Shown: in pieces, positions 8,440-40,000 of the stretch
Numbering within the stretch: position 1 is the stretch's first letter
How the letters are laid out: each line of letters opens with the position of its first letter
NCBI RefSeq assembly: GCF_026001925.1
Contig: NZ_AP021871.1
Coordinates: forward strand, 6,137 to 46,136
Reading direction: 5' to 3'
DNA length: 40,000 bases
DNA from: Vibrio gangliei
GTDB taxonomy: Bacteria > Pseudomonadota > Gammaproteobacteria > Enterobacterales > Vibrionaceae
The notes under the pieces: model-generated
What the model was told of the DNA's origin: nothing
The model's input: the letters and a program-made list of their open reading frames with translations, nothing else
Database searches by the model: none
Program-made: the position numbers and the translations under genes

Positions 8440-8988
8440 ATGAAAAAATTCCTCTCTGTAATCATCGCAATTTGCGTTGGAAGTTCGGCCTATGCTGCCG
8501 ATATTGAATCAATGCCAACACAAAGCAATAATCATACAAATATTAGTGTTTCTGCGAATACAAGCGAAAGCAACTGGAAGAAGTCACCAAAACCCACCAG
8601 TAAAAATAATGGCGGTGTATGGGGCACTAGCACTGCAAACAGTCAATCCGCTTCATTTCCATCAGGGGCAAAAGCCGTTTCAATTATCACGGCTTACTCT
8701 AAAAATGCAGATAATAGTTATGCTTCAAATTTGCAACCATACTCCCAAGCCTTTTCTGGCACCTTCGCAGTACCAACATCAGGAACAAAAACCTACACAG
8801 TAGGCACTATGAGATATGCGGTTTGCTCAGGTGGTGCTCATGGTGGTGCATCATGCACTCAAAAAAGTATCGATTGTAAGGTTTCCGTATCTTCAACACG
8901 AATAAATCTGATTGGTAATGCGAATACAGGTTTGAGCGGAACCAAGTATTGCTTCCCAAATATCAGGGTTGTGACTTATTACCGATAA
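8440..8988 (+). CDS. Secreted protein, paralogue C of the QSNNH family (unknown function)
   Basis: Signal peptide ends AYA. Mature N-terminus is ADIESMPTQSNNHTNISVSANTSESNWKKSPKPTS. The C-terminal region is unrelated to paralogues A and B. Confidence 0.65.
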   Translation: MKKFLSVIIAICVGSSAYAADIESMPTQSNNHTNISVSANTSESNWKKSPKPTSKNNGGVWGTSTANSQSASFPSGAKAVSIITAYSKNADNSYASNLQPYSQAFSGTFAVPTSGTKTYTVGTMRYAVCSGGAHGGASCTQKSIDCKVSVSSTRINLIGNANTGLSGTKYCFPNIRVVTYYR

Positions 8989-9013
8989 GTTCCACTTCGG
9001 GTTAAACGTGGAT

Positions 9014-9401: not shown

Positions 9402-9635
9402 ATGTCAAAGACTGTTGATGCTTGGAATGAAACTGTAGTTGGCCTTGCTAGCTCAGACACTATCGCAACAATCATCGGGCTTACATACTTTGGAGGAATG
9501 CTTTTGTTAGGAGCGTACTTATTTAGTGGCATGTTTGATTCATACAAGAAGAAAACTCTGACACAAAATGAGGCCATGTGGTACTTGATTCGCTACTTCA
9601 CTTTATTGATTTTCACTACATATTATTTTTTATAA
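9402..9635 (+). CDS. Small two-TM membrane protein (TIGR03758 / DUF3262 position)
   Basis: 77 aa with two hydrophobic helices and a good AGGAG RBS. Assignment is from synteny only. Confidence 0.45.
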   Translation: MSKTVDAWNETVVGLASSDTIATIIGLTYFGGMLLLGAYLFSGMFDSYKKKTLTQNEAMWYLIRYFTLLIFTTYYFL

Positions 9636-9645
9636 GGCATTAATA

Positions 9646-10020
9646 ATGAAAGCAATTATTAACAAATCTCAATCAATCCTAAGAGGTGTCTGTATTGGAC
9701 TTTATGCCTCTATATCAACAAGCTCGTTTGCTGCTGATTTGCCAACTATTGATATTCAAGGTGGTGGTTCAACTGACTACGTTGCAACTACAAAAAACAT
9801 CATTTGGAGCCTATTAGCTTTGGGCGCAATGATTGTCGTTGCAAAACTATTCTTTTCTGCGGTCGATGGCGTATTAACAAAATTCAACGAATGGAAGCAA
9901 AAGCAAGCCACTATTGCTGAGCTTATTGGGATGGTGCTGTTAGCGGTTGGCCTATTAATGGGCGGTGTATTCTTACTAACGCAGCTAAGTGACTCACTAG
10001 GTTTAGATTTCTCATTCTAA
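9646..10020 (+). CDS. Membrane protein, candidate conjugative pilin-like subunit (TIGR03745 / PFL_4702 position)
   Basis: Signal peptide ending SFA, followed by two TM helices. The VirB2/TraA-like architecture and the synteny both fit. Confidence 0.5.
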   Translation: MKAIINKSQSILRGVCIGLYASISTSSFAADLPTIDIQGGGSTDYVATTKNIIWSLLALGAMIVVAKLFFSAVDGVLTKFNEWKQKQATIAELIGMVLLAVGLLMGGVFLLTQLSDSLGLDFSF

Positions 10021-13466: not shown

Positions 13467-13839
13467 TTTGCTAACTTTGGTTTTAGCAGCCTGTAGCGCC
13501 CCAAAAAGAGAGGAACCTGTATTTCCCGAGCCAGAAATGACCACTAAAGAGGTTTATGACGGCCAAGGGAAAAGTGATGCAGATTTTGCTCGCAGTGTGT
13601 TGCGCAGACCGACTACCGAAACCGAAAACAGCATAGATCCATACATGCTGCATAACACACCAAGAACGCATTATCTGATGCTAGACAATCCGACAATGTA
13701 TTTGTTTGTAAATACACATATTTCGACCGAGTACCGGATTCCAATTCCAGCATACATAACCGAGTTTAAATTACTTGAGCGTGACGAATACGCCCTGCCA
13801 AGTGAAAGCAATTTAACAAACTGGGAAGCTAACAAATGA
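13444..13839 (+). CDS. Transfer-region lipoprotein (TIGR03751 position)
   Basis: Lipobox LVLAAC in MSKAVLISLLTLVLAAC. Its stop overlaps the ATPase start (ATGA). Confidence 0.55.
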   Translation: MSKAVLISLLTLVLAACSAPKREEPVFPEPEMTTKEVYDGQGKSDADFARSVLRRPTTETENSIDPYMLHNTPRTHYLMLDNPTMYLFVNTHISTEYRIPIPAYITEFKLLERDEYALPSESNLTNWEANK

Positions 13840-17439: not shown

Positions 17440-18734
17440 GAGGGCGTTCAGAATTCTGTGTCAGTTAATTTTGACTAAATATCTAAGACGTCATCCAAAC
17501 GACCTTCAAAATGAATCGCCAGTTGAGACAATGTCATATTCCAGTTCTGGATTGGCATTGTCCATTTCTTAGATGCATTCAATATCCCAGCATACAACAG
17601 CTTAAGCAAGCTGTTTTCATTTGGAAAACCACCTTTAGTTTTGGTCAGCTTTCGAAACTGACGATGTACCGCCTCAATAGCATTGGTGGTATATATAGCT
17701 TTCCGAACATACTCTGGATATTTAAAGTAAACCGACAGGTTTACCCATTTATTACGCCATGAGCGTAATACTATTGGATATTGTTGGCCCCACTTAGCTT
17801 CTAATCGGTCTAACTCTATTTCAGCTGCTTCCTTAGTTACCGCTCGATAAACTGGTTTCAGATCTGCCATAAACTCTTTTTGGTGCTTAGATGCGACATA
17901 TTTTATTGAGTTACGAATTTGATGGACGATGCACAACTGAACTTCAGTGTTTGGATAAATAGTGGCAATGGCTTCAGGGAAACCAACCAAGCCATCTACG
18001 CAACTGATTAAGATATCCTCAACCCCTCGATTATGTAAATCAGTTAAAACTGATAGCCAATAATTTGCGCCTTCAGACTCTGATAAGTATAGCCCGAGCA
18101 GTTCTTTTTTACCGTCGATATTCAAGCCTAAAATTGTGTATATCGCTTTACTGACATAGCGACCATCCTCTCTAATTTTATAGTGGATGGCATCAAGCCA
18201 AATGAACGGGTATATAGCGTCTAAAGGACGCTGTTGCCATTCTTTAAGCTCTGGTATTAAGCGGTCTGTGACAGCAGTAATTGTGGCCTCAGAGACGTCG
18301 ATACCATACATATCTTCAACATGTCCTCGAATATCACGATAGCTCATTCCTAACGAGAACATAGAAAGGATTTTACGATCAATTTCATCAGTCAGCTTGG
18401 TTTGATTTTTCTTGATAAGTTGAGGTTCAAAAGAGCCTGAACGGTCGCGAGGAGTATCAAGTTCAAATGCTCCGACAGAAGACTTAACAGTCTTCTTAGA
18501 GGTTCCATTTTTACGATTTGGCTGGTCATCATTATCGATGTGTTGTGCAAGCTCAGCTTTTAAAGCAGCTTCCGTAATTTGCTTGATAAGAGGAGTTAAA
18601 AAGCCATCTTTGCCTGTTAAATCTTGTCCAGATTGAAGAGCTTTAATGGCTTGCTCTAGATCGAAATCATTATTCATGTGTCATTCCTTTTTTATCTATT
18701 TTAGGAGAAATGACACAGATTTCTAAACACTACC
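17440..18734 (-). mobile_element. IS256-family insertion sequence (about 1.3 kb)
   Basis: Imperfect terminal inverted repeats G.GTT.AGAA.TCTGTGTCA lie at both ends. It carries a single mutator-type transposase. TACTAT is present on both flanks. Boundaries are good to within a few nt. Confidence 0.8.
17475..18677 (-). CDS. IS256-family (mutator-type) transposase
   Basis: 400 aa. The N-terminal DLEQAIKALQSGQDLTGKDGFLTPLIKQITEAALKAELAQHI and the overall pattern are typical of IS256 transposases. Confidence 0.9.
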   Translation of the reverse strand: MNNDFDLEQAIKALQSGQDLTGKDGFLTPLIKQITEAALKAELAQHIDNDDQPNRKNGTSKKTVKSSVGAFELDTPRDRSGSFEPQLIKKNQTKLTDEIDRKILSMFSLGMSYRDIRGHVEDMYGIDVSEATITAVTDRLIPELKEWQQRPLDAIYPFIWLDAIHYKIREDGRYVSKAIYTILGLNIDGKKELLGLYLSESEGANYWLSVLTDLHNRGVEDILISCVDGLVGFPEAIATIYPNTEVQLCIVHQIRNSIKYVASKHQKEFMADLKPVYRAVTKEAAEIELDRLEAKWGQQYPIVLRSWRNKWVNLSVYFKYPEYVRKAIYTTNAIEAVHRQFRKLTKTKGGFPNENSLLKLLYAGILNASKKWTMPIQNWNMTLSQLAIHFEGRLDDVLDI

Positions 18735-18895: not shown

Positions 18896-19879
18896 TCATT
18901 GATTTTCCTTATTGTTTTCAATAAAGATTTTATTTAGTGGGCTTACAGTACCCGCAAAATGTTCGCCAATAACATGGGTATAGATTTGTGTCGTCGCTAC
19001 ATCTGAATGTCCTAATAGCTCTTGGACTGTACGAATATCTTGCCCCGAGCGCAGCAGTTCGGTAGCGAAGCTATGACGGAAGGTATGGCATGTTATTCGT
19101 TTATTAAAGATTTTAGCCTGTTGCACCGCTCGTTTGAGAGCCTTTCTTGGTGCAGAATCGTGTAAATGATGCCGACAAAGCTGATTAGTCAGTGGGTGCC
19201 GACAGATGCTTAAAGAAGGAAAGATAAACATCCAAGCAATTTGTTTAAAAGCGTTCGGGTACTTTTTACCAAGGGCGTGTGGAAGCGAGGGACCGATGCC
19301 TTGTTTGATATCTTCTTCTTGTATTTTTGACGCTTTCTGAATTTGCAATTGAAGAGAACCAATTAACGTTGGGCTAAGTAAAGTTACGCGATCTTTTTTC
19401 CCTTTCCCATCTCGCACGGTTAAAGATAGGTTTTGTAAATCAAGATCTTGAACTCTAATTCTCAAACACTCATTAACTCTAAGTCCAGAACCATACAACA
19501 GAGAAAAAATGATGTGATTAACACCAGAAAGGTGTGACAGTATCAGTTGGACTTCATTTGGCGTAAGTACGCTCGGAACCTTGCGCTGCTTTTTAGCATA
19601 AGTAAAACCTAGATCACCAAGCGGTCTTTGTAAAAACTGGTTGTAAAGGAACGCAATCGCATTAAGCGCGACTTTTTGAGTGTTGATAGCGACGTGTTGT
19701 TCATTAGCAAGATAAGACAGATAGGCTGTTACCTCAGTCGTTCCCATATCTTGAGGATGCTTTAGCTTATTAAAGCGAATGAAGTATTTTATCCAGTATA
19801 TATAGGCCTTTTCTGTTTTGAGGCTATAGCCTCGCATTCGCATGTGTCTACGGATTTCTTCAATGAATTTGCTTGCCAT
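18896..19879 (-). CDS. intI: Integron integrase, IntI2-like, apparently intact
   Basis: Tyrosine recombinase motifs HTFRHSFAT and [16 protein letters not shown]. Carries the IntI-specific insertion [21 protein letters not shown]. By eye it is much closer to IntI2 / Shewanella-type than to IntI1, with no internal stop. Confidence 0.9.
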
Positions 19880-23674: not shown

Positions 23675-25842
23675 GTGCGACCTGAAGTCGTATGAAGCGT
23701 TGTTCACCACGATAAGAGTGGACCATCTGTATCACCAGATGACCCTAGGATTCTGAATAAAGCAGCGAATCCGACAATGTAACGAAACTCGGTTGTTAGA
23801 CTGAGTGGGAACTGAATCGTGAGAGAACGTTCCTCCTGATAACCACAAATCGGGTAAGTGCTAGGGTGTCAGTATGATGAACGTAAGTGAATCCATGTAA
23901 GGCGCGTTATACGATGAAGCAGCGGAAGTGGTTTGTACGCTGTGGCCAAAAAGGCAATGAGAGCCGGAAAGAAGTTGGACAGTACTCTTTCGTGATCGAT
24001 GTGCTCTCCGCACTATAGTGGGCATCTAACCTGATATTTTGCGCGACATACGGAACAGGGTAAGCCTGTATATCTCCCTTCGGGAAAGCAGTCTGCGAAG
24101 ACTGCCGATAGGTATGCAGGTAAAGGAGGTTAGAAAAAGCAAATGCCACTTTGTAATGAAGTGGATACAGGTTTATATCTGGCGCGAAAGCGAGCTGACT
24201 TCTAACTGGTCTCCCGTTGCAAGATGATTTGAAGAACTTTATTTAAGGAGAAACGCAAATGGTGGCTTTATTAGAAGTTAGTGCCTCTCCTAACAGTATT
24301 CAATGGCAATCCATCGATTGGAAGGCTGTCGAGTTGCACGTATTAAAGCTTCAAATGCGCATTGCAAAAGCAACCCGAGAGGGAAAACACAGTAAAGCGA
24401 GAGCTTTGCAGTGGATCTTAACACACTCAAGATCAGCTAAATTACTGGCTGTGAAGCGAGTGTCTCAAAACAAAGGCAGTAAGACACCCGGAATAGATGG
24501 AGTCATCTGGAATACAGATGCTCGTCGAATGACCGCAGTAGATCAATTGAATCGTAAAGGTTATCGAGCCAAACCACTCAGACGCATCTACATCCCGAAA
24601 AAGAACGGCAAACTTAGACCTCTAGGCATTCCATGCATGATAGATAGAGCGCAACAGGCGCTGTATTTACTTGCTTTGGAGCCGATATCGGAAACGATAG
24701 CTGATCCTAACAGCTACGGTTTTCGTCCGAATCGCAGTACTGCTGACGCTATAGCACAATGCTTTAAATGTTTGTGTCTTAAGCGCTCAGGTAAATGGGT
24801 TTTGGAGGGGGATATTAAAGCTTGCTTCGACAAAATCGGGCATGAATGGCTAATTGAAAATGTTCAAATAGACAAACGAATGCTAAAGCAGTGGCTAGGC
24901 TCAGGCTATATTGATAAAGGTTTGTTTTACCGAACATCGGAGGGAACTCCGCAAGGCGGAATTATCTCACCAACACTTATGTTACTGACACTTGCGGGCT
25001 TAGAAAAGCTTGTAAAGGAAGTAGACAAGAGCTCGGGAGAACGAGTTAACTTCATCGGTTATGCGGATGATTTTATAATAACCGGATCATCAAAAGATGT
25101 TCTTATCAATGAAATCAAACCTCGGTTAATTGGTTTTCTAAAAGAAAGAGGGTTGGCACTCTCTGAAGAGAAAACACACCTTACTCATATAGATGATGGC
25201 TTTGACTTTTTAGGTTTTAACCTCAGGAAGTACAAAGGTAAATTGCTCATCAAACCGAGTAAAACTAACGTTCTCTCTTTCTTGGGAAACTTGCGTGAAC
25301 TCATCAAGAAGCACGCAACAATGCCAGTCAATGATCTTATCAGACTATTGAATCCTAAATTGAAAGGTTGGGCGAATTATTATCGTCACTGCGTTGCAAA
25401 ACGAACTTTCGGCTATCTCGGTCATCAAATCTTCTGGCTTCTGTGGCGATGGGCGGTTAGACGCCATCCTACTAAGCCAAAAGACTGGGTCAGGCGCAAA
25501 TACTACATGAATAGAAGTGGTGGTTGGCAATTTCACGGTTGGCAGAAAATCGCGAACATGGACTGTCATTACAACTTAGTTCAAATAGCGAAAACGCCGA
25601 TTAAAAGACATGTGAAGATCCGAAGTGCGGCTACACCGTTCGACCCCCAATACCAAGATTACTTGGCAAAGAGGAAATCGAAAAAGGAAAGTCGTCACTC
25701 ATGGTTGGAGCCTGCTTTAACTGCTATCTAGGTTGCTGGGTAACGTAATACGCCTTAGTGGAGGCTTGAGCCGTATGCAGTGAAAGTTGCACGTACGGTT
25801 CTTAGGAGGGCGGCACTTGGTAACAGGTGTCGCCTATCCGAC
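23675..25842 (+). mobile_element. Bacterial group II intron (about 2.17 kb) with intron-encoded RT/maturase
   Basis: 5' GTGCG at 23675. Domain V GAGCCGTATGCAGTGAAAGTTGCACGTACGGTTC lies at about 25767-25800. The domain VI stem GGCGGCAC / GTGTCGCC has a bulged A 7 nt from a 3' end ...TCCGAC. Confidence 0.85.
24259..25731 (+). CDS. Group II intron reverse transcriptase/maturase (no endonuclease domain evident)
   Basis: RT motifs include RRIYIPKKNGKLRPLGIP and YADDFII. A maturase (X) domain follows. The protein ends without an HNH/En region. Confidence 0.9.
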   Translation: MVALLEVSASPNSIQWQSIDWKAVELHVLKLQMRIAKATREGKHSKARALQWILTHSRSAKLLAVKRVSQNKGSKTPGIDGVIWNTDARRMTAVDQLNRKGYRAKPLRRIYIPKKNGKLRPLGIPCMIDRAQQALYLLALEPISETIADPNSYGFRPNRSTADAIAQCFKCLCLKRSGKWVLEGDIKACFDKIGHEWLIENVQIDKRMLKQWLGSGYIDKGLFYRTSEGTPQGGIISPTLMLLTLAGLEKLVKEVDKSSGERVNFIGYADDFIITGSSKDVLINEIKPRLIGFLKERGLALSEEKTHLTHIDDGFDFLGFNLRKYKGKLLIKPSKTNVLSFLGNLRELIKKHATMPVNDLIRLLNPKLKGWANYYRHCVAKRTFGYLGHQIFWLLWRWAVRRHPTKPKDWVRRKYYMNRSGGWQFHGWQKIANMDCHYNLVQIAKTPIKRHVKIRSAATPFDPQYQDYLAKRKSKKESRHSWLEPALTAI

Positions 25843-29198: not shown

Positions 29199-29672
29199 TT
29201 ATTTATGAGAGATAAGCTTTTGAATTGAAATGCCAGTATGCAGGTGGACATATATAACAAATCGAGCTGGAACGGATTCTAATTTTTCATACAACCCAAT
29301 CGCTACTTCATCAACGGCCAGCTTTTGTGCTAGCTCATTTAATGAATCTACCTTTAGCAAAGTCATTAAGTTTTCAACAAATTTACCACCGCTAGGAAAC
29401 TCCAAACCTAATGCGTTTAACCCTGTGGCAATATTTGATTTGCTTCCTTTAAACACCTTTTGCTTACCGGTTATGGCAGCAAAATTACCATTATCCATCA
29501 GCGCAACTTTGTAATCATAAGCAACCATATTATTGATTTGCGCGGCTGTTGGGACGTTTGATGAGGCAAGAAGTGTCTTTCTATCACCACCGAAAGCATG
29601 AAGAAGAACATCCTCAAGTGGAAGCGTTTCAGCACCATCTATAACCACATCTTTCTGAGATTGTAATGCCAT
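29199..29672 (-). CDS. Candidate transcriptional regulator: unknown N-terminal domain plus C-terminal HTH-like segment
   Basis: SLNELAQKLAVDEVAIGLYEKLESVPARFVIYVHLHTGISIQKLI looks like an XRE-type HTH. The gene is divergent from the transfer operon, with tandem operator copies in its upstream region. Confidence 0.45.
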   Translation of the reverse strand: MALQSQKDVVIDGAETLPLEDVLLHAFGGDRKTLLASSNVPTAAQINNMVAYDYKVALMDNGNFAAITGKQKVFKGSKSNIATGLNALGLEFPSGGKFVENLMTLLKVDSLNELAQKLAVDEVAIGLYEKLESVPARFVIYVHLHTGISIQKLISHK

Positions 29673-31229: not shown

Positions 31230-32867
31230 ATGTTAACCAATGAAGCAACAGACCTGTTTTTTATCCCGTTGGGTAACTACATGTCATCACAGATATGGGA
31301 TTTATTGCTGCAGACTAAGCTCTATATAATTCCATTCATTATCGTGCTAATCGTTTGTTTTAACGAGGCCAGAGCCGCAGGCGCGGATGAAGGGACGCCC
31401 GCAATACAAACCTTTAGAAAGTTTGAAGCAAAAGCATGGGGTATGTTTGTAATAATTCTATTTGCTGTACAGCCATTCTCCTTTTCATCGAAAGAAACAT
31501 TTAGAGATATAACCTACAAAAGTTATTCATGCTTAGCTGGTGGATTAGGTACGTACTTAACGGTCGATCAGCTATCAATAAACCCAACAATTCAATCTAT
31601 TGAGGGGGCGAATCCATCACTATGGAATGCGCTCATGAATATGTTTTCAACAGGGGTAACAAACGCCGCAATCCATGCTATTCCTTGCGATGTTCAAGAG
31701 GGTGAAAATAGCTTACGTGTAGCTTTAACCAATGCACAAAGCGCGGTGCCTGAAGGCGACCTTTATCAAACTGCACTTGAATATAATAAGCAATGTTACG
31801 CACCGGCTATTAAACGTTTGGGTGATTTATCACAAATGCAAAATCAGCAATCTGAAATAGATATGTCAGACCTGTCTTTCAATAGTCAAGCAATTAGAAC
31901 CGCGTTATCAGGAATGAATATTGACGGATATGAAGAAAAGCTTACCGCTACCGTTCAATTGCCCGAATATTCACAAGAGGGCTTCCTATGGGGCTATAAG
32001 CCAGCTACCGTTGATTGCAGCGTTTTAGGAAGCAATTTACACTCCGATTTGGTTGAATACACAAAAACAGGAAATTACGCAAAAGACTTTGCCGCTATTA
32101 ACCGCAGATCAACATCAAGTGATACTGAAAATGACAATAGCAATGCAAATGTTTTGTTTAATAACGCCATTCATAAAGATGGCAGAACATTGACTGATGC
32201 AGCCCTGAGTAGCCTAGATTCTACTGTGAACGGTAATGCTGCAGGTTGGCTTTTAACAACCTTTAATCCTTCTGGGTTGGTATTAGAAGGAACATCTGGT
32301 AGTGGCAGTATATTAGAACGCTCAGCGAATGCTATACGAAATAGTGTAACAACAGCATCTAACTTGTTAGGTGTGGCAATAGACTCAACAAAGGTTCTTC
32401 AGTACCAAATTACCGCTCCCCTTGTTATTTCAATAGCCAAAATGCTTTTGATTATTGCATTCCCATTAATGATGTTGATGACAGGATTTAATCGGAACCT
32501 ATTACTAGCTTCCACAATAGGATATGTGGCGATAGAGTTTTCTAAATTTACATTTGAACTTGGGGCGTATTTAGATGAATCACTCACATCATTCTTATTC
32601 AATGTAACGTACCTTAAATTACCAGAAGGCATGTCCGTTTCAATGATGCAAACAATTTCAACATCCATAAATTTAATAGGTCAAATGGCTAATTATAGCC
32701 TTGTTCTTATATGGTTTGTCTTTGTGGGCTGGATGGGTGTAAAACTATTTGGAAGCTTATCTATGAGTGATAGCGCGGGACAACAAGCAGCATCAACCGC
32801 TGGGTCATTCGCATCATCAGTTATATCTTCAGGCGTTAGCGTAGCTAAAAAAGCAGCAGGTCGTTAG
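31230..32867 (+). CDS. TraG_N-type polytopic membrane protein (mating-pair stabilisation family)
   Basis: 545 aa with multiple TM helices at both ends and a large central periplasmic region. This is the usual last gene of the MPF-G block. Confidence 0.55.
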   Translation: MLTNEATDLFFIPLGNYMSSQIWDLLLQTKLYIIPFIIVLIVCFNEARAAGADEGTPAIQTFRKFEAKAWGMFVIILFAVQPFSFSSKETFRDITYKSYSCLAGGLGTYLTVDQLSINPTIQSIEGANPSLWNALMNMFSTGVTNAAIHAIPCDVQEGENSLRVALTNAQSAVPEGDLYQTALEYNKQCYAPAIKRLGDLSQMQNQQSEIDMSDLSFNSQAIRTALSGMNIDGYEEKLTATVQLPEYSQEGFLWGYKPATVDCSVLGSNLHSDLVEYTKTGNYAKDFAAINRRSTSSDTENDNSNANVLFNNAIHKDGRTLTDAALSSLDSTVNGNAAGWLLTTFNPSGLVLEGTSGSGSILERSANAIRNSVTTASNLLGVAIDSTKVLQYQITAPLVISIAKMLLIIAFPLMMLMTGFNRNLLLASTIGYVAIEFSKFTFELGAYLDESLTSFLFNVTYLKLPEGMSVSMMQTISTSINLIGQMANYSLVLIWFVFVGWMGVKLFGSLSMSDSAGQQAASTAGSFASSVISSGVSVAKKAAGR

Positions 32868-33409: not shown

Positions 33410-33943
33410 TTAACCTTGATTGATCTCACAATTTTCACGCCTGAAGCACACTAAACATTTGGCTGATTTTCTACATTTAGGCTTTTTTCCCTGTCTAATC
33501 ATATTGATATACGCAACCTCATTTTTGATTTTTCTATAAAGTGTAGCTGATGAATACGATAATTTAACGGGATATAACTCAGATTTTGTCACTAAATACC
33601 CACTGCTTACAGGGTAGCCTTGCTCCCTTGCTGTAATTGCGCTGGCATACATTTGCTTATCATCGGATGGATAGTGACCTTTATATCGAGACTTGTGCTC
33701 AACAAGAGTGTGCCGAAATAAAGAAGTCTTGAATATGAAATCCGGTTTAGAGCTGAGTTTATATTTGTGACTCAACAGAACGGGATGTTTATTGTCATCA
33801 ATATAGACAAGCTTCCCTCGGAATCCGAATTGTGTCATCGGGAGCGTTAATTTATAGATTTTGTTGAGCGCCCACCAACAAGCGGTTAATGCAGTCAACA
33901 GCAGAGAAGAAACCAACACTAAGTAAGAGATCTGATATTCCAT
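33410..33943 (-). CDS. Membrane-anchored PD-(D/E)xK nuclease, Cas4-like
   Basis: N-terminal TM YLVLVSSLLLTALTACWWAL. Nuclease motifs are KPDFIF (D), VEHKSR (ExK) and QMYASAI (QxxxY). The C-terminal CLVCFRRENC is a Cx2Cx5C Fe-S-type motif. The ATG at 33943 is preferred to the GTG at 33955. Confidence 0.7.
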   Translation of the reverse strand: MEYQISYLVLVSSLLLTALTACWWALNKIYKLTLPMTQFGFRGKLVYIDDNKHPVLLSHKYKLSSKPDFIFKTSLFRHTLVEHKSRYKGHYPSDDKQMYASAITAREQGYPVSSGYLVTKSELYPVKLSYSSATLYRKIKNEVAYINMIRQGKKPKCRKSAKCLVCFRRENCEINQG

Positions 33944-33955
33944 AAAAGTTCCCAC

Positions 33956-33971
33956 ATAATACTTGTATTAT
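33956..33971. promoter_or_regulatory. Palindromic operator ATAATACTTGTATTAT (perfect)
   Basis: On the minus strand it lies immediately downstream of TTGCAA-N17-TAAAAT and 13 nt upstream of the nuclease ATG. Confidence 0.6.
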
Positions 33972-34052
33972 ATTTTTACTATGTAAATCTCTTGATTGCA
34001 ACAATCAGGGGGATAAATATTTGGATAGTACAAGAAGTAATCATAGTTGCAC

Positions 34053-34070
34053 TTATTACCACGGTAATAA
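34053..34070. promoter_or_regulatory. 18-bp perfect palindrome TTATTACCACGGTAATAA (copy 2)
   Basis: Identical to 8342-8359. Ends 9 nt before a TTGACA hexamer. Confidence 0.5.
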
Positions 34071-34079
34071 TGAGATTGG

Positions 34080-34108
34080 TTGACAATTATTCACCCCTGT
34101 GCAAAATT
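34080..34108 (+). promoter_or_regulatory. Sigma70-like promoter TTGACA-N17-AAAATT
   Basis: Consensus -35 at 17-nt spacing. The predicted transcription start lies just before leader element copy 1. Confidence 0.5.
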
Positions 34109-34117
34109 AAAGACTCA

Positions 34118-34206
34118 AACACTCACTTCTCTCTCGGGCAATTTAGAGAAGCGTTTTAGCCCATACCACCAGCCATCCTCGGCTAATCCTTCCCTACGGG
34201 AACTCC
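34118..34206 (+). promoter_or_regulatory. Structured leader element, copy 1 (three hairpins)
   Basis: HP1 is CACTTCTCT[CTCGGGCAATTT]AGAGAAGCG followed by TTTTAGCCCATACCACC. HP2 is AGCC[ATCCTC]GGCT. HP3 is TTCCC[TAC]GGGAA. Confidence 0.6.
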
Positions 34207-34384
34207 AATCTAAATAGCAAATTACTAATAGTCTTATGATTATTGTACTGCTACACCTACTGATTTTACTCAGATCTTACTATCAATCCCTGCTTGGGAT
34301 TACTTAATTGCATCTAGCAATAACTAACCGTCCATTTATGGACACAACCAACGTGCTTTGCACAAAACTATTAAGGTAATAACT

Positions 34385-34822
34385 ATGGATTATTTCACTA
34401 TGTCACCAGCTACTTTCTTGATTTGGAATAGCATTAAAAACTTTGCATTTCTATGTTCAGGTTTTGCTTTTCCTATAATTGCTTTGCTTTCATTTTGGCG
34501 TATCTGCCGATTTGTGAAGCAAGTGAAAATTGGCTACTACTCAAACAAGACCGCTAATAAGCTTGTTAGACGCAGAGAAGCCAAATTGAAAGTAAGCAAC
34601 ACAAATGATTCAGAGCTTGAAAATGCTAATGGCACTTTTAATTTCTTTGAATCGGTAAACTACGATGCTCATGCTGAGTTAGTTGACGATGCAGAAATGG
34701 CAATTCCAACCTATATCCGTTTAGGTGTGGAATTAGCAGGCTTCATTGATGAGCAATGCGAAGAACTTGAAGAAGCTTTAGATGTACCTTGCGGTGCTTT
34801 CATGAATGCAGCACAGGGGTAA
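34385..34822 (+). CDS. Membrane protein with acidic C-terminal tail, unknown function
   Basis: Start context AAGGTAATAACTATG is shared with neighbouring genes. One or two TM helices are followed by an acidic region. Confidence 0.5.
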   Translation: MDYFTMSPATFLIWNSIKNFAFLCSGFAFPIIALLSFWRICRFVKQVKIGYYSNKTANKLVRRREAKLKVSNTNDSELENANGTFNFFESVNYDAHAELVDDAEMAIPTYIRLGVELAGFIDEQCEELEEALDVPCGAFMNAAQG

Positions 34823-34826
34823 TATC

Positions 34827-34964
34827 ATGTGGGCTGAACAAGTATTAGTTAATGCAGCAGTGTTACTAACTTCACTGTGGACTGTATGGGAGTGTGTAGG
34901 CGTGTTTTATCGTAAGGTTGTTAAAAAGACTTACAACAAAAAGCTCGCTAAGCTACCTATTTAA
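34827..34964 (+). CDS. 45-aa single-TM protein (not in the ORF track)
   Basis: MWAEQVLVNAAVLLTSLWTVWECVGVFYRKVVKKTYNKKLAKLPI. Starts 4 nt after the previous stop and is followed by a terminator. Confidence 0.4.
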   Translation: MWAEQVLVNAAVLLTSLWTVWECVGVFYRKVVKKTYNKKLAKLPI

Positions 34965-34975
34965 ACCGTATCAAA

Positions 34976-35004
34976 ACAGAGCCCCAGTAGGGGCTTTGTT
35001 TTAT
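34976..35004 (+). terminator. Rho-independent terminator
   Basis: AGCCCC / GGGGCT stem followed by TTTGTTTT. Confidence 0.7.
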
Positions 35005-35030
35005 TCGGTAGGTCTACTACCCAAAATCCA

Positions 35031-35120
35031 AACTCACTTACTGCTCGGGCAATTTCGGTAAGTGTTTTAGCCCAAACCATCCGTCACATAGCTGACAAAT
35101 CAATGTCCGATTCGGACAAG
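35031..35120 (+). promoter_or_regulatory. Structured leader element, copy 2 (diverged, compensatory changes)
   Basis: HP1 is CACTTACTG[CTCGGGCAATTT]CGGTAAGTG followed by TTTTAGCCCAAACCA. HP2 is GTCA[CATAGC]TGAC. HP3 is GTCCG[ATT]CGGAC. Confidence 0.6.
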
Positions 35121-35224
35121 CAAACTTAAACTCAATTCTTCATTCAAGATCTTGGCGTAAGCCGAGTATTTGATTGATGGAATTTTCCAATCGTACTTAT
35201 GTACAAAACTTAAAGGTAATGACT

Positions 35225-36589
35225 ATGACAACTACAACTGACAAAACAATATCAAACGAACTTCGCGCGTTTATTGCACCAATGGCAAAAAAAGCCGGAT
35301 TCAATGACGAGTATAAATACTATGAATTAGTGTTTAATAAGATTTTCGTTCCACTCTTAACAAGAGAAAGAGATCCATTGTCGTTTATTCCTGAATCAAG
35401 CATTTGGGAATTATTTGTTCTCGCACGTAGAACCGCGTTAAACCCGTTGTTCGGGCAAATATACGCTGGTGTGTACGGTGGGCAAATCACGGTGGATTTA
35501 ACTGCTAAAGGTTACTTATCTGCATTGATAAATAATCCAGACTACAAAACTCACAAAATGGTGTTTTCGAGTGAAAAAGTAACCTGCCCATACTCACAGC
35601 ATTCAGTTAATGAATGGTGCTCTTTAATTATAGAGTTTAAGGATGGGCGAGTTATCGAGGGAATTCCTGAATTCTTTTTAGAGAACGTTCGAAATACTAT
35701 CGTGTGGACAAAATATCCATCCCGTTTAAATGCAATGAAGGCGTTAACTCGTGGCGTTGCTTTCGCTCTATCACTTGATTGTGGTGATAGTGTGGAGTTA
35801 ATGGAGATGGAGTTAGATGAAACAAAGTCTGGCCAAGAGCATGATGGTGGAATTGTCATGGATGAATCCGAAACCCCTAAAAAGGTCGAGGTAGATCCAT
35901 CAATTGAGCTAAATGCTGAATGGAAAGGTTTTGTTCACAAGCTAGGACTCGATACTGACGTAAATTTAGTAAATAAAATCGTTAGCAACATTGAGTCGAA
36001 GCTTTCTGAGCAGGGTAAGACTATTCATTTCACAAATGCTGAGCAATTAGTGAATATGAAGAAGTACCTTAGTGATTCTGTGACAATCAACTTGGAAAAG
36101 CTAAATAAAGCGAAACAAGAAGCAGAAGCGAAGAAAGCGGCTGAACATGAGCATACAACTGAAGAAAAATCAGGTGTAAACAACTCTCATGATCAGGAAA
36201 TTGAAGCTGTAAATACCGTTCAATCGGACGAAGAAGTTGTGGTAATTGAAGCAGAGGAAGTTGTTGAAACTTCAGAGGTTACAGTTATCGATTCGGAGTA
36301 TGATGAGCTGGTAGATGAAGATGAAGAAGTGGCTATCGAAGCAACAGAAGTTGAATCAGAGGAACCGGTTGAAAATGATTTTTCTGAAAGCATTGATACG
36401 GAAAACTTTGAAAATTTCGATGATTATGACTTCACTGCAATCAGCCCTGCAACAAGACACACCATCGACCAGTTAGCCTCAATTTCAGAGGGTAAAGGCG
36501 GTGCTGAGTTTTTAATAAAGGCTGCTGAATCGTTCACAACTAAGCTTGAAAAGGCTTACGTTCGAATGATTGCTGCGCGTATCAAATAA
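35225..36589 (+). CDS. Red-beta/Bet-type single-strand annealing protein with long acidic C-terminal extension
   Basis: ALNPLFGQIYAG, TAKGYLSALINNPDY and VWTKYPSRLNAMKALTRGVAFA parallel lambda Bet GLNPWTKEIYAF, GVDGWSRIINENQQF and PWQSHPKRMLRHKAMIQCARLAF (from memory). The start at 35225 has the shared AAGGTAATGACTATG context. Confidence 0.55.
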   Translation: MTTTTDKTISNELRAFIAPMAKKAGFNDEYKYYELVFNKIFVPLLTRERDPLSFIPESSIWELFVLARRTALNPLFGQIYAGVYGGQITVDLTAKGYLSALINNPDYKTHKMVFSSEKVTCPYSQHSVNEWCSLIIEFKDGRVIEGIPEFFLENVRNTIVWTKYPSRLNAMKALTRGVAFALSLDCGDSVELMEMELDETKSGQEHDGGIVMDESETPKKVEVDPSIELNAEWKGFVHKLGLDTDVNLVNKIVSNIESKLSEQGKTIHFTNAEQLVNMKKYLSDSVTINLEKLNKAKQEAEAKKAAEHEHTTEEKSGVNNSHDQEIEAVNTVQSDEEVVVIEAEEVVETSEVTVIDSEYDELVDEDEEVAIEATEVESEEPVENDFSESIDTENFENFDDYDFTAISPATRHTIDQLASISEGKGGAEFLIKAAESFTTKLEKAYVRMIAARIK

Positions 36590-36663
36590 AACCATTCATT
36601 ATGGTAAAGTGCTTGTGCGTACCCAAAAGGGTATGCACAACTCTTTTAATCATTGGTGGTTAT

Positions 36664-36951
36664 ATGAAATTCATCTTTATTGGAAAGTATTTTCGTGACT
36701 TGTTACGTGATGCTATTAAATTCAATGACAACGCTTTCTTATCGTTTAACGGTAAGGACTTGGTATTGGAGACAGAAAACGGTTTCTCAGTTCGTTCAGA
36801 GCTGGTGGAATCGGTTGATGGTGATGCGGTTAAAACAACATTCAAGAAAGAACTTAATAAAGCTGAACTTTTAACTGAATTAAAGGAAGCTAAATCAGTT
36901 CTAATTGAGTTAACCAACCAAAGTATAGCCATCAAATCTCTTACCTACTAA
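36664..36951 (+). CDS. Hypothetical protein
   Basis: The internal ATG at 36664 follows GGTGG. 95 aa with no motif recognised. Confidence 0.45.
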   Translation: MKFIFIGKYFRDLLRDAIKFNDNAFLSFNGKDLVLETENGFSVRSELVESVDGDAVKTTFKKELNKAELLTELKEAKSVLIELTNQSIAIKSLTY

Positions 36952-36974
36952 GCCACACTCAAGCCATCTTTTAG

Positions 36975-37010
36975 GCTTTCCATTCGTCTTATTAGACAAG
37001 CTAACTAATA
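36975..37010 (+). promoter_or_regulatory. Partial leader element (HP3 module only)
   Basis: TTCGTCTTATTAGACAAGCTAACTAATACCA aligns with TTCGTCCACCTTGGACAAACCAATACCA of copy 3. The hairpin GTCT[TATT]AGAC is preserved by compensatory change. Confidence 0.45.
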
Positions 37011-37106
37011 CCAACTTGCAATCGACAGCAGAACCATTTTTTAAATGGTTTTGTTCTTGTCGTGCGCATAAACCCGCGTTTTACGCAATTCAAAAAGGAA
37101 ATAACT

Positions 37107-37775
37107 ATGAAAACACTATTCGAACAAATGGTTGAAGCATCCGTTCAGTACCCGTTAATGACTCGCTTTACAGAAGATCTGTTTGAGATTGATAGAGATA
37201 TTATCGAAAACGATTCGGTAGTAGGCGATAAATATATTTGGATACTGAAAGGAAATGGAGCTGGTACATGGCTCTATCGCTTAAACAGTAAAATTGGAAT
37301 AGAAATGCTTGAGTACACGATAAAGAATGAACCTGAGTCATCAGAGTTCTTTTGGCTGCATAATAATGGAGATCAAAAATCCATTTTGCAGCACATATCG
37401 AGAAGCCACGCATTAAGCTTGGCCAAAGCACAGGTATTAACTAACCGAGAACCTAGAAGAAGAAATTTGGGCTCTCAAATCACTCATTGTTTAAACATTT
37501 CAGATCCAAAATGTTCGTTAATTGCGAATCCAAAGGTCTTAATGTTAGCAAGCCAAAAGGGGAAGGTAACAATAACACTAAATAAGCTTGTTCGAGATGT
37601 CGCAATTATTACGGTATCAGGGCAGTTTGGGAATAAGTTTGAGATCAGACACATCCTTGATTTAGTGGACTTTGTTGACTCAGACAGATACGAATCTATC
37701 AGAGGTATGCTGAACAAGCCGCAGCATTTTGTGTGTGACGGTCGTTCTTATGCCTATCCCTGCACAGTACAGTAA
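37107..37775 (+). CDS. Hypothetical protein
   Basis: Start context AAAAGGAAATAACTATG. 222 aa with no motif recognised. Confidence 0.55.
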   Translation: MKTLFEQMVEASVQYPLMTRFTEDLFEIDRDIIENDSVVGDKYIWILKGNGAGTWLYRLNSKIGIEMLEYTIKNEPESSEFFWLHNNGDQKSILQHISRSHALSLAKAQVLTNREPRRRNLGSQITHCLNISDPKCSLIANPKVLMLASQKGKVTITLNKLVRDVAIITVSGQFGNKFEIRHILDLVDFVDSDRYESIRGMLNKPQHFVCDGRSYAYPCTVQ

Positions 37776-37791
37776 GTAATTTAATAACAAA

Positions 37792-37813
37792 CCTACGGGG
37801 CAATTCCCGTAGG
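37792..37813 (+). terminator. Hairpin CCTACGGG / CCCGTAGG after the 37107 gene
   Basis: 8-bp GC-rich stem with a 6-nt loop. A T-run follows after a short second stem. Confidence 0.5.
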
Positions 37814-37845
37814 GGAGTTGCCTCTTTTTAATTAAAGAGGAACAA

Positions 37846-38109
37846 ATGAAAGCAAAATTCAACGCTTTGAAAAAGGCAATTTCAATACGAATTGCCGCTT
37901 TTGTTCATTTTATTCGAAAAATTGCTGGCGCATTGAAAAATGCAAAAGCAGCTATCGGTGTCCACTTGGGGAACTTGGGAGTAGCTGGATATACCGGTGC
38001 TTATACATCGGCTATATCATCAGATTTTGATTTTAACCAACAGTTTTATTTGTTGCTGGGATCAGGTGTGATATTTACGCTACTTGCCATCATTTCTTCA
38101 AAAGACTAA
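37846..38109 (+). CDS. Small membrane protein
   Basis: RBS AAGAGGAA. 87 aa, amphipathic N-terminus plus a C-terminal TM. Confidence 0.5.
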   Translation: MKAKFNALKKAISIRIAAFVHFIRKIAGALKNAKAAIGVHLGNLGVAGYTGAYTSAISSDFDFNQQFYLLLGSGVIFTLLAIISSKD

Positions 38110-38146
38110 AATGTGAACAATGGCTCATTGAAGCTAAGGACAGAAT

Positions 38147-38275
38147 ATGACAGCTTTATATGTTGTAATGGGTGTTGCGTTAACAATTGGCTTACTTGCC
38201 ATTGCATCACCTTACATAGAAAAAAAGTTGATAATAGTTGAGAAAAAACTTCTCGATTACGCTAACGAAAAGTAA
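38147..38275 (+). CDS. 42-aa single-TM protein (not in the ORF track)
   Basis: MTALYVVMGVALTIGLLAIASPYIEKKLIIVEKKLLDYANEK. AAGGA lies 7 nt upstream, and a strong terminator follows. Confidence 0.4.
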   Translation: MTALYVVMGVALTIGLLAIASPYIEKKLIIVEKKLLDYANEK

Positions 38276-38280
38276 TACTG

Positions 38281-38311
38281 AAAAAGCCCGCATTCGTGCG
38301 GGCTTTTTTTG
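38281..38311 (+). terminator. Rho-independent terminator
   Basis: AGCCCGCA / TGCGGGCT stem followed by T7. Confidence 0.85.
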
Positions 38312-38353
38312 TTTAATTGAAATCATTTAAACCTTATGAGATATTAACGACTC

Positions 38354-38446
38354 AACACTCACTTCTCTCTCGGGCACTCTTAGAGAAGCGTTTTAGCCCA
38401 TACCACCAGCCATTCTCGGCAACTCTTTTCGTCCACCTTGGACAAA
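38354..38446 (+). promoter_or_regulatory. Structured leader element, copy 3
   Basis: Near-identical to copy 1 over about 65 nt. HP3 is replaced by GTCCA[CCT]TGGAC. Preceded by TTGAAA-N17-GATATT. Confidence 0.6.
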
Positions 38447-38509
38447 CCAATACCAGACTATTCAACCATTAAACCAATCAGCTTTTTGCTGTGGCTTATT
38501 GCGTCTTGA

Positions 38510-38520
38510 AACCACCTATT
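38510..38520 (+). promoter_or_regulatory. Weak copy of the shared upstream motif (AACCACCTATT)
   Basis: One deviation from AACCRYCTAAWT. Lies only 39 nt (motif end to start codon) from the 38559 start, so its significance is uncertain. Confidence 0.25.
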
Positions 38521-38558
38521 GAGCATTTATTGCTCAACTTAGTTAAAAGGAAATAACC

Positions 38559-38885
38559 ATGTTTAACAAACACTATCTAGTGAATGTACGGATTCAAATC
38601 TCTGATATTGAGTTCGATACAGACGTTATCATTAAAGCCCCGTCTTCTGATGAGGCTCGTGAATATGCTATCTATTTAGAATCAAAATCACCTCGTAGAC
38701 TCAAATGGGTCGAGGATGGTGCAATTGATATGGATGGAAAAATCAAACTAAGCACAAGCTTTAAAACAATCGAGTCACATCATTTAACCGCACTGAGGAA
38801 GAATTTCATAACATGGAATTTCTGCCAAAGCGACTTAAATAACTGTGGTAACTACCTTGAATATAAAGCGCTAATTAAGAAATAA
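38559..38885 (+). CDS. Hypothetical protein
   Basis: Start context AAAAGGAAATAACCATG. 108 aa with no motif recognised. Confidence 0.55.
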   Translation: MFNKHYLVNVRIQISDIEFDTDVIIKAPSSDEAREYAIYLESKSPRRLKWVEDGAIDMDGKIKLSTSFKTIESHHLTALRKNFITWNFCQSDLNNCGNYLEYKALIKK

Positions 38886-38906
38886 CTTAATCAGCAAAGT
38901 ATTCAC

Positions 38907-38946
38907 AACCCTAAAGGGACATTTCCCTGCAGGGAAATTCCTTTTG
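38907..38946 (+). terminator. Terminator module AACCCTAAAGGGA...TTCCTTTT (copy 1)
   Basis: Inner perfect palindrome ATTTCCCTGCAGGGAAAT. Outer pairing is AAAGGGA / TTCCTTT, followed by a T-run. Confidence 0.65.
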
Positions 38947-38976
38947 ATAATAACAAACGCAAAAAAAGGAAACACT

Positions 38977-39234
38977 ATGGCAATTCTTACACCACGACTA
39001 AGAGAAGCAAAAATCGAAATAGATTTAGATGGCGAGCACGGCAATGTTTTTGTGCTGATCTCGGTAGCTAATAACCTCACAAAAAAGCTCGGCATAACTA
39101 CCAACGTAGGGGAGATTATGCGATGCGGTACTTATGAAGATGCTGTGAGAGTTTTCGATGTGTTCTTTGGTGAGTATGTAAATATTCGAACTAGGAACCC
39201 TGAGCGATTTACATTGAATCTAGGGGATAACTAA
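38977..39234 (+). CDS. Hypothetical protein
   Basis: Start context AAAAAGGAAACACTATG. 85 aa. The track start at 38944 lies in the terminator. Confidence 0.5.
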   Translation: MAILTPRLREAKIEIDLDGEHGNVFVLISVANNLTKKLGITTNVGEIMRCGTYEDAVRVFDVFFGEYVNIRTRNPERFTLNLGDN

Positions 39235-39289
39235 ACCCGCGCAGAGCGCAAATCTAACCGGTAATAACTAACCAAACTTTAACCACTAA

Positions 39290-39334
39290 AACCCTAAAGG
39301 GATCTCATTCTCATTAGGGTGAGATTCCTTTTCA
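39290..39334 (+). terminator. Terminator module AACCCTAAAGGGA...TTCCTTTT (copy 2)
   Basis: AAAGGGATCTCA / TGAGATTCCTTT stem with one G-T pair, followed by a T-run. Shares its outer sequence with 38907-38946. Confidence 0.6.
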
Positions 39335-39368
39335 AATGCGCTACGCGCCAAGCAAAAGGAAACTAACT

Positions 39369-40000
39369 ATGACAACTGCATTAGCAAACATAAAATTCAA
39401 TATTGATTTAGGTAATGAACAACTCAACAAAACTGCATTAGCAGTGAATGGTGGGATCATTGAACATCAATTCATCATGTACAAACAACGCTTAGAGCAA
39501 ATTGAATGGTTTTACCAAAATCAAAGTTGCTTTGAGAGTGTGTATAAATACATTTCTAGCCAAACCTACAGCTTTTTTGCAAACAAAATAGAAGTAGCGC
39601 TGGAACAATTAAAAGTGTCTTCTTGGAAGGAGTTACTTCACACAACCGGATTGTATGACGTTCTGCCAAATCAACGAAAAAAGGAATGGGAAAACCAAGA
39701 AGAATGGGTTGATTTTAATGAGGAAAACATTAAATCCACTTTGTTCGCCCTACTTAAAGAGCAAGGTAAATTCACCGCAGAAAAGATTGATGGATGCTTT
39801 AAAAGCCTTTCTAAAGAGCATATCACCAACCGACCAGAGGGATTCTATAAACGCTGCATCTTCGCGTTAGATAGAAATAACGGGGGGTGGCATGATTATC
39901 TCAGTGGGATGGTGGATTGCATTCATGATTTTAGAGCAGTGATTTTGCTTTTAACAAACCGAAACACCAAACTTTTTACCGTATATCATACTCGTCAGTT
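39369..40000 (+). CDS. Hypothetical protein, 3'-truncated by the window edge (possibly DUF4942-like; not in the ORF track)
   Basis: Start context AAAAGGAAACTAACTATG. The frame is open for 210 codons to the end of the window. The DUF4942 idea rests only on vague recollection. Confidence 0.55.
   Translation, partial: MTTALANIKFNIDLGNEQLNKTALAVNGGIIEHQFIMYKQRLEQIEWFYQNQSCFESVYKYISSQTYSFFANKIEVALEQLKVSSWKELLHTTGLYDVLPNQRKKEWENQEEWVDFNEENIKSTLFALLKEQGKFTAEKIDGCFKSLSKEHITNRPEGFYKRCIFALDRNNGGWHDYLSGMVDCIHDFRAVILLLTNRNTKLFTVYHTRQ

Follow-up and report, generated by a model that had tools for sequence, protein, structure and literature searches.

We analyzed a 40,000-nucleotide stretch of DNA from Vibrio gangliei (contig NZ_AP021871.1; hereafter the window), which carries a conjugative element of the PFL_4706/MPF-G type. 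Past 34 kb, where every gene is located on the + strand, the window holds small orphan genes, a recT-like gene (35225-36589) and three copies of a repeated leader element, which we call c1, c2 and c3. Each copy includes a core of ~57 nucleotides (nt) whose main hairpin (HP1) retains a near-invariant loop while its stem changes by compensatory substitution. The motif is undescribed, and the elements that carry it form a very small marine gammaproteobacterial group. Our preferred reading, which we offer tentatively, is that the element is a cis-acting leader RNA recognition module controlling transcription elongation or antitermination, by analogy with nut, put and canT.

Full copies are present on the + strand at 34116-34206 (c1, with its core at 34116-34172), 35027-35120 (c2) and 38352-38446 (c3). 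An nhmmer profile built from the window copies recovers the three with E values of 7e-28, 3e-27 and 2e-26, and a covariance model (CM) of the 57-nt core scores c1 at 84.2 bits (E 1.6e-20), c2 at 74.2 bits and c3 at 79.7 bits. The sequence GTTTTAGCCCAWACCA occurs exactly three times, against 0.84 occurrences expected even when three mismatches are allowed. A repeat with three full copies, as an earlier note on this DNA had described, is thus borne out by both profile and CM scores. The partial copy that the same note placed near 36975-37010 is not: neither nhmmer nor the CM finds a match there at E<10, and the segment is not conserved in L003, a 1.9-kb Logan contig with 65% identity. It carries two small hairpins on the + strand (AGCC/GGCT and GTCT/AGAC) and no core, and with a likeness confined to these hairpins it is best treated as generic intergenic hairpins.

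Two clear homologues (L2_a and L2_b; nhmmer E ~1e-9) are located at 8954-9009 and 18541-18597 of L002, a contig of assembly GCA_040777765.1. The five clear copies score 74-84 bits with the CM, whereas the next best match falls below 12 bits. A sixth, diverged copy is the best CM match in the first 50 kb of a Shewanella plasmid (L004, 12618-12674). This match is weak, with an E value of 1.6, and it lies upstream of a lambda-exonuclease/AAA-ATPase operon with the same promoter-to-core spacing and the same fold as the clear copies. All six copies have the orientation of the gene downstream. The positions of c1 and L2_a are orthologous, each following a divergent Cas4-like gene, and the RecT-like proteins of the two elements are just 44% identical. 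The element has therefore been kept in place over a long divergence.

Leader copies are known from three elements only across the plasmid, phage, genome and metagenome collections searched. Exact degenerate patterns gave 0 matches in genome contigs, and the first of these gave 0 in metagenome and viral contigs. A looser second pattern gave 0 matches in viral contigs and five in the metagenome, all of them attributable to chance: four are identical high-GC soil contigs, one lies in apparently coding sequence, and the HP1 stem is present in none. Searches with the leaders by megablast/blastn against plasmids, phages and E. coli genomes returned nothing, and the RecT-like alignment, used as a protein anchor to search genome contigs, led to no confirmed locus. 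Another relative, Vibrio sp. S11_S32 (L007; TraG 75%), adds no further copy because its leader has been deleted. At 5690-5725 of L007, a c1-type promoter and the first bases AAAGACTCA are kept, and ~49 nt extending from AACACTC through HP1 to GCCCATA are gone. The deletion adjoins an inserted restriction-modification and toxin-antitoxin module; downstream of the leader remnant, a MazE / integrase / type I restriction-modification module stands in place of the operon.

The core begins with a 5' lead-in, AACACUC, continues with HP1, and ends with the 3' flank GYGUUUNAGCCCNNACYACC, where both flanks are near-invariant. HP1 itself has a stem of 7-9 bp that is closed by the near-invariant 12-nt loop CUYGGGCAWUYY. 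In c1, the 5' single strand CAAACACTC is followed by HP1 arms at 34126-34132 and 34145-34151, which enclose the loop CTCGGGCAATTT (34133-34144), and then by the 3' flank GCGTTTTAGCCCATACCACC. The arms of c2, CTTACTG/CGGTAAG with one U-G pair, occupy 35037-35043 and 35056-35062, and those of c3 occupy 38362-38368 and 38382-38388.

Strong evidence of compensatory change supports this hairpin. All 8 of its 8 pairs form in each of the five clear copies, with four pairs changed on both sides and one G-U pair. The covariation score of 0.367 was reached by none of 500 shuffled alignments, and sliding the partner strand by 1-3 columns lowers it to 0.08 or less. RNAalifold recovers the stem independently. 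When the Shewanella copy is included, every one of the 42 core-stem cells is paired, and three Watson-Crick types are seen at two of the pairs. By this measure HP1 is a structured RNA under selection, and the proposal that its stem covaries while its loop is kept withstands both the shuffle and the slide controls. Because the stem changes but the loop and flanks remain fixed, HP1 would be a recognition element; the combination of a variable stem and an invariant loop is the mark expected of a folded nucleic acid that is read by a partner.

The loop and the 3' flank probably also pair with each other, through the segments GGGC and GCCC, to form a small H-type pseudoknot. The two segments are invariant in the five clear copies (34136-34139 with 34159-34162 in c1, 35047-35050 with 35070-35073 in c2, and 38372-38375 with 38396-38399 in c3), and the Shewanella copy carries GGCC/GGCC, a compensatory swap. 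The geometry is sterically feasible, with an S1 stem of 7 bp, an L1 loop of 3 nt, an S2 stem of 4 bp and an L3 loop of 7 nt.

Two more short GC hairpins follow the core in every clear copy. Those of the window, HP2 and HP3, are AGCC/GGCT (34171-34184) and TTCCC/GGGAA (34190-34202) in c1, GTCA/TGAC (35083-35096) and GTCCG/CGGAC (35105-35117) in c2, and a 3-bp hairpin (38409-38420) and GTCCA/TGGAC (38431-38443) in c3. HP2 is missing from both L002 copies. L002 has GTCC/GGAC and TCCC/GGGA hairpins in tandem, and the TTCCC/GGGAA hairpin of c1 is therefore a different module and not a homologue of the HP3 of c2 and c3. Compensatory support for the GTCC/GGAC hairpin is weak, amounting to one pair. 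HP2 and HP3 are interchangeable small-hairpin modules that are not position-homologous in all copies. Thus, of the three covarying stems claimed by the earlier note, HP1 stands, with 4 of its 8 pairs doubly changed, whereas HP2 is not conserved and HP3 is reduced to a single compensatory position in one of two different kinds of hairpin.

The promoters identified upstream of two copies are present and keep their position in L002. For c1 (34080-34108, + strand), TTGACA is separated by 16-17 nt from CAAAAT/AAAATT, which TGTG precedes, and the whole aligns with the promoters of c3, L2_a and L2_b. For c3 (38317-38345, + strand), TTGAAA is followed after 17 nt by an extended -10 element, TG-n-GATATT, and TRTGnGATATT is also found in L2_a and L2_b. 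In these four copies, the combination of the -35 and the TRTGnGATATT extended -10 ends 11-13 nt before AACACTC, and the Shewanella copy carries TGATAATAT at equivalent spacing. The conserved spacing suggests that the predicted start site lies a few nucleotides ahead of the core and, because four of the five clear copies are so placed, that the element forms the 5' end of the transcript. Together with the covariation of HP1, this position supports a transcribed, promoter-proximal leader whose main stem is selected for structure.

The remaining window copy, c2, has a weak promoter at best. It lies directly after an intrinsic terminator (GCCCC/GGGGC and a T-run, 34980-35004, + strand; predicted folding free energy, ΔG, -12.8 kcal/mol), with no strong promoter in between and no promoter between this terminator and the recT-like gene. 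This strong terminator right before the recT-like gene has conserved counterparts at 9894-9912 of L002 and at 8094-8115 of the Shewanella plasmid L004. Nevertheless, c2 retains a complete core with its own compensatory changes, and its function would therefore need no 5' terminus. The statement that each copy follows a terminator is accurate for c2 and c3 but not for c1, which follows a divergent gene.

Further intrinsic terminators on the + strand are located after the recT-like gene (36613-36640; 12-bp stem, ΔG -19.1), after the gene for a 222-amino-acid protein (37797-37824; ΔG -21.1), and at the end of the c1 unit, directly before the c3 promoter (38280-38309; ΔG -18.9). The layout is thus one promoter followed by four strong intrinsic terminators over 4.2 kb, set between co-oriented promoterless genes. 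From the c1 promoter to the terminator at 38280 there is no further good promoter, and one weak match is present at 38084. The terminator scan reported 17 terminator-like sites against 4.7 +/- 2.2 expected.

From predicted start to start codon, the full leaders measure 210-290 nt and fold as strings of short local hairpins, with z scores of -1.9 to -4.8. Beyond its small hairpins, the c1 leader (34203-34384, + strand) continues as a C-rich, G-poor string of hairpins with a C/G ratio of 2.06 and a fold z score of -4.8. The rest of the c3 leader (38447-38558, + strand) overlaps 38397-38476, the most C-rich, G-poor 80-nt stretch of the 40 kb. Leader C/G is ~2 in all three elements versus 0.8-0.9 in neighboring coding sequence, and the leaders rank among the top C-minus-G segments of the window, for which the overall ratio is ~0.9. 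Sense-strand leaders of this composition are found at 34114-34384, 36910-36989, 38397-38558 and 39236-39368, as well as in L002 and L004. Taking as a yardstick for Rho-loading (rut) sites an untranslated RNA of ~80 or more nucleotides that is C-rich, G-poor, weakly structured, located upstream of a pause or termination zone and sensitive to Rho inhibition, the leaders resemble such sites in composition and also bear many small hairpins.

The fixed place of the element after a conserved promoter, together with its orientation, favors a function as RNA, and the terminator-rich, promoter-poor layout with Rho-prone leaders suggests elongation as the controlled step. In the mechanism that we tentatively favor, the folded core would be recognized by RNA polymerase itself or by a factor encoded by the element or the host, and binding at the core would render the elongation complex resistant to termination. 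Transcription begun at one or two strong promoters could then pass through the Rho-prone leader and over the strong intrinsic terminators that separate the promoterless genes downstream. The genes served in this way would be the recT-like gene and small orphans in the window, a cobS/VWA-like operon in L002, and the lambda-exo and AAA-ATPase operon in Shewanella. The element would work like lambda nut, HK022 put, pLS20 conAn2 and Tn916 canT without homology to any of them.

Like lambda nut (boxA plus boxB) and HK022 put, the element is promoter-proximal and cis-acting, occurs in at least two copies per element, and heads terminator-containing operons. The known sites also share with it a hairpin in which the stem varies and the loop is conserved, preceded by a conserved single-stranded segment, and a link to recombination genes (exo/bet of lambda pL). 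However, neither sequence nor Rfam comparison shows any similarity, the Vibrio core resides in a conjugative element and not in a phage, it may hold a pseudoknot, and its 12-nt loop is not a GNRA-like pentaloop. In a lambda-type nut site, a single-stranded boxA (YGCUCUUUA) would precede a boxB hairpin closed by a GNRA-like pentaloop, and an N-type protein carrying an arginine-rich motif would be expected. The resemblance to boxA is weak (CACUCUCUAAC vs CGCUCUUUAAC) and partly inside the stem, where the best match, 9 of 11 positions in one L002 copy, overlaps it. On these grounds, and because the protein scans described below gave no N-like protein, we rejected a nut site proper, although an analogy of function is possible.

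In Gram-positive conjugative elements, the conAn2 RNA of pLS20 and canT of Tn916 act in cis as RNA antiterminators (PMC8191782, PMC11658703). They too are orientation-specific leaders, and they let RNA polymerase read through several intrinsic terminators. In contrast, each is single and larger and is located at the start of a conjugation operon in Firmicutes, whereas the Vibrio element is ~57-95 nt long and multi-copy, heads accessory and recombination operons of an MPF-G type gammaproteobacterial element, and is absent from the tra operon. Processive RNA antiterminators of the put, conAn2 and canT kind are defined by what they do, namely read-through of several heterologous terminators that is cis-acting and orientation-specific. 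The Vibrio layout, in which a promoter-proximal element precedes four strong internal terminators without promoters, is compatible with such a role.

Several observations dampen our enthusiasm for this reading. Both the transcription start and the read-through are predictions from sequence, and the internal terminators may simply set expression ratios in the absence of antitermination. Scans of the region's proteins against Pfam, NCBIfam and PHROG gave no match and no candidate antiterminator or N-like protein. The tra operon has an upstream palindrome shared with the leader promoters, as described below, but no such leader. The C-rich composition extends to very short Shewanella spacers in which no Rho loading is possible, and therefore may reflect selection for an unstructured ribosome-binding site (RBS). 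Because the c1 and c3 cores are 92% identical, only ~4-5 independent sequences lie behind the covariation, too few for an R-scape-type statistic. The pseudoknot is supported by a single swap in the copy with a CM E value of 1.6, and the fold z scores of the element alone are modest (-1.0 to -2.3). A more ambitious version of the idea, which we regard as doubtful, is that the RNA is a self-sufficient device of a kind undescribed in Gram-negative conjugative elements, namely a put/canT-like antiterminator or a Rho-gating pseudoknot aptamer that would switch on recombination and establishment genes of the MPF-G/MOB-H element.

Among the alternatives to elongation control, the best supported, although we hold it to be somewhat improbable, is that the leader serves the fate of the mRNA. 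The core and hairpins would stabilize or insulate the transcript or direct its processing, as a shared 'expression cassette' 5' untranslated region (UTR) in which C/A-rich linkers and a hairpin before the Shine-Dalgarno sequence keep the RBS open. The full leaders indeed consist of short local hairpins spaced by C/A-rich linkers, at least nine genes of the three elements have a 4-7 bp hairpin whose end lies 19-23 nt ahead of the start codon, and C-rich spacers directly precede the Shine-Dalgarno sequence even in 40-nt Shewanella intergenic gaps. A generic stabilizer, however, needs neither an invariant 12-nt loop nor an invariant 20-nt flank. In ompA-type stabilizers, a hairpin at the 5' terminus protects against RNase E. 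HP1 differs from such a hairpin in being located ~12 nt from the predicted 5' end, after a conserved single-stranded lead-in, and c2 is apparently internal to its transcript.

The hairpin near the start codon constitutes a second module of these leaders. It has 3-7 bp, lies immediately 5' of a Shine-Dalgarno sequence AAGGWAAT with its end 19-23 nt from the start codon, and keeps its position while its stem varies (GTGC/GCAC, GTAC/GTAC, GCGC/GCGC, GCG/CGC, TTGAGCA/TGCTCAA). In the window it is found at 34353-34363, 35193-35204, 37078-37088, 38520-38538 and 39338-39348, and in relatives at ~9408-9428, 9920-9931 and 18737-18750 of L002 and 13-24 of L003. The c1 leader ends in such a hairpin (GTGC/GCAC, 34353-34363) 21 nt before the ATG at 34385, and the c3 leader in TTGAGCA/TGCTCAA 21 nt before the ATG at 38559. 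The module may act as an RBS insulator or as a processing boundary. At 39232-39277, a duplicate hairpin-plus-Shine-Dalgarno module (GCGCAGAGCGC...GGTAATAACTAA) lacks a start codon and is located 99 nt before the functional copy ahead of the DUF4942 gene, which starts at 39369. In the Shewanella plasmid, CCAATC-type repeats directly precede many Shine-Dalgarno sequences, and a repeated leader hairpin of its own, GACGATGWAAGGYTTCGTC followed by ACTACC, is present at 7339-7381 of L004 and at 20136-20178 of L009, upstream of ssb. A junction of a helix with CACUACC also follows the GCCC/GGCC strand in the L002 cores and the Shewanella 12618 core.

The probable pseudoknot raises the possibility, which we judge unlikely, of a riboswitch-like aptamer or a protein-responsive switch that gates the access of Rho to the C-rich tract beginning at GCCC. 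Conserved loops and junctions, a covarying stem and a feasible H-type geometry would suit such a switch, and the most C-rich tract starts with the 3' strand of the pseudoknot. However, the core has no Rfam riboswitch match, the downstream genes are DNA-recombination genes and orphans that offer no metabolic logic, one swap is all that supports the pairing, and no alternative, mutually exclusive structure is evident.

We searched the whole window with Rfam 15 at gathering thresholds and found matches to a group II intron only. No match overlaps the core either at E<=5 over 33900-39500 or at E<=10 over 34090-34400. The earlier view that the element belongs to no known family is therefore upheld, and known ribozymes and riboswitches are ruled out. 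These searches covered STAXI (RF01728), a simple pseudoknot-forming hairpin unit that mobile elements carry beside ssb, topoisomerase, antirestriction and integrase genes, frequently in the 5' UTR (PMC2864571). STAXI has no known function, and it is debated whether it works as RNA or as single-stranded DNA (ssDNA) (PMC2864571). STAXI is enterobacterial and consists of 2-3 tandem pseudoknot units, whereas the Vibrio leader has one unit and two plain hairpins, and cmscan does not match STAXI to the Vibrio core even at E<=10.

The same ambiguity between RNA and ssDNA is relevant here, since the element could be a signal used on entry into a recipient, such as a priming site, an ssDNA promoter or an HUH-type nicking site. 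A hairpin whose 3' flank is conserved and single-stranded is a layout also seen in oriT/nic and ssi sites, and neighboring genes handle DNA (recT, exonuclease and topoisomerase, with ssb in relatives). Wobble pairs leave the strand undecided, since the U-G pair of c2 is on the + strand and A/C positions of the L002 hairpins would be G-U on the opposite strand. We nevertheless find this explanation quite unlikely. Frpo/ssi elements of F-like and IncI leading regions likewise are repeated structured elements before early or establishment genes of conjugative plasmids, but Frpo is an imperfect hairpin of ~300 nt that rebuilds the -35 and -10 in ssDNA. A search for inverted repeats around the four promoter-leader regions found short, weak pairs only, and the Vibrio leaders instead follow a duplex promoter of the ordinary kind that is conserved, with its spacing and orientation fixed. 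These findings, with six of six copies co-oriented with downstream genes, weaken the earlier suggestion of an ssDNA promoter. By inspection, no conserved CTG lies beside the hairpin as in G4-type priming sites. The stems differ between copies within one element, which a sequence-reading relaxase would not tolerate, and the Shewanella plasmid copies are >90 kb from the mobH relaxase gene. An attC or HUH-type site was also rejected, on account of the stem differences and because no R-box-like consensus is present.

The position of HP1 just past the promoter, and the UUUU that follows it in the three Vibrio copies, had suggested a promoter-proximal intrinsic terminator acting as a conditional attenuator. 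Measured against a yardstick of a stable GC-rich stem, a loop of 3-8 nt and at least five U residues directly after it, conserved in homologues, HP1 falls short. HP1 has a ΔG of -5.8 to -8.1 kcal/mol versus -13 to -21 for real terminators nearby, its loop is 12 nt, and its tail has only 2-4 U residues and reads UUUU, UUUA, UUUC or UUG among homologues. HP1 was not reported by the terminator scan, and no conserved antiterminator pairing competes for its arms. Attenuation is therefore very unlikely.

Equally doubtful is a 5' UTR-derived small RNA, in which the first 95-110 nt would be released from 2-3 paralogous copies per element and the loop would serve as a seed for target mRNAs. The element is multi-copy and ~100 nt long, with three hairpins and an exposed invariant loop, and the pre-RBS hairpin could mark a processing boundary. 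However, neither a terminator nor a U-tail follows the third hairpin, no loop-complementary target is found near any RBS in the window, and there is no antisense promoter. The absence of minus-strand promoters in the leaders also led us to reject an antisense RNA. Coding sequence was rejected because the predicted transcript has no start codon before the core and the frame of c2 is broken.

A duplex DNA operator for an element-encoded regulator was considered because the Shewanella relative encodes AcaB and MobH, which would point to an AcaCD/SetCD-like activator. The AcaCD box is an inverted repeat, TGCCC-N5-GGGCA, that overlaps the -35 of the dependent promoter (PMC4207636), and published boxes such as ...GGGCAATTACAGAT (PMC4207636 Table 1) have a right half to which GGGCAATTTAGAG is similar. 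This is extremely unlikely, since the left half (TGCCC) is missing, GCCC-N5-GGGC boxes are not enriched in the window (6 vs 4.7 expected), the site is downstream of the -10 and not over the -35 as with class II activators, and duplex recognition leaves complementarity-preserving stem changes unexplained.

A candidate operator is located upstream of the leader promoters, where nothing else is conserved. The palindrome TTACCACGGTAA (34056-34067) lies 12 nt upstream of the c1 promoter -35. As TTACCRYGGTAA, it occurs twice in the window, there and at 8345-8356 before the tra operon, and three times in L002 (8865-8876, 8888-8899 and 18477-18488, upstream of both leader promoters), against 0.15-0.32 occurrences expected. 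It is likely the operator of an element-encoded regulator, for which a conserved CI-type helix-turn-helix protein (29199-29672, minus strand) is a candidate. The c3 copy does not have this TTACC..GGTAA palindrome, and a different one, GTTTAATTGA/TCATTTAAAC with 10-nt arms (38311-38332), overlaps the c3 promoter -35 and therefore may be a separate operator.

The tra operon of the window starts at 8440, and its transfer genes include type IV pilus genes, TraC (13836-16658), TraU and a TraG N-terminal-domain protein (31230-32867). An integron and a group II intron break up the conjugative element at ~18.9-26 kb. Two insertions interrupt the tra region between 17475 and 26000. One is a transposase gene of the IS256 family (17475-18677, minus strand). 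The other is the integron, made up of a tyrosine recombinase of the integrase type (18896-19879, minus strand), cassettes for arr, dfrA and aadA, a DUF3703 gene and the group II intron with its reverse transcriptase/maturase (23723-25842). The recT-like gene codes for a RecT-like N-terminal part of ~185 amino acids followed by a long acidic C-terminal extension. The likeness was seen solely via tblastn to a Shewanella gene annotated as RecT, and the protein has no Pfam, NCBIfam or PHROG match. Protein searches found four related elements and no more. Among the closest relatives are two plasmids of Shewanella xiamenensis (TraC 60%). They carry genes for a MobH relaxase and a regulator of the AcaB family, and the Shewanella plasmids were the sole near relatives found with the CobS-like protein.

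The rarity of the motif, with leader copies in three elements only in all searched collections, limits the reach of these findings. If the leader does control elongation, RNA antitermination or Rho gating, so far a feature of phages and Gram-positive conjugative elements, would reach a Gram-negative family, one that carries integrons and resistance genes in Vibrio and Shewanella. The core would then also offer an RNA module for study that is compact (~57 nt) and easily probed by mutation. Were it no more than a plain leader, the element would still define how promoter, operator and leader are arranged in a poorly known group of elements.

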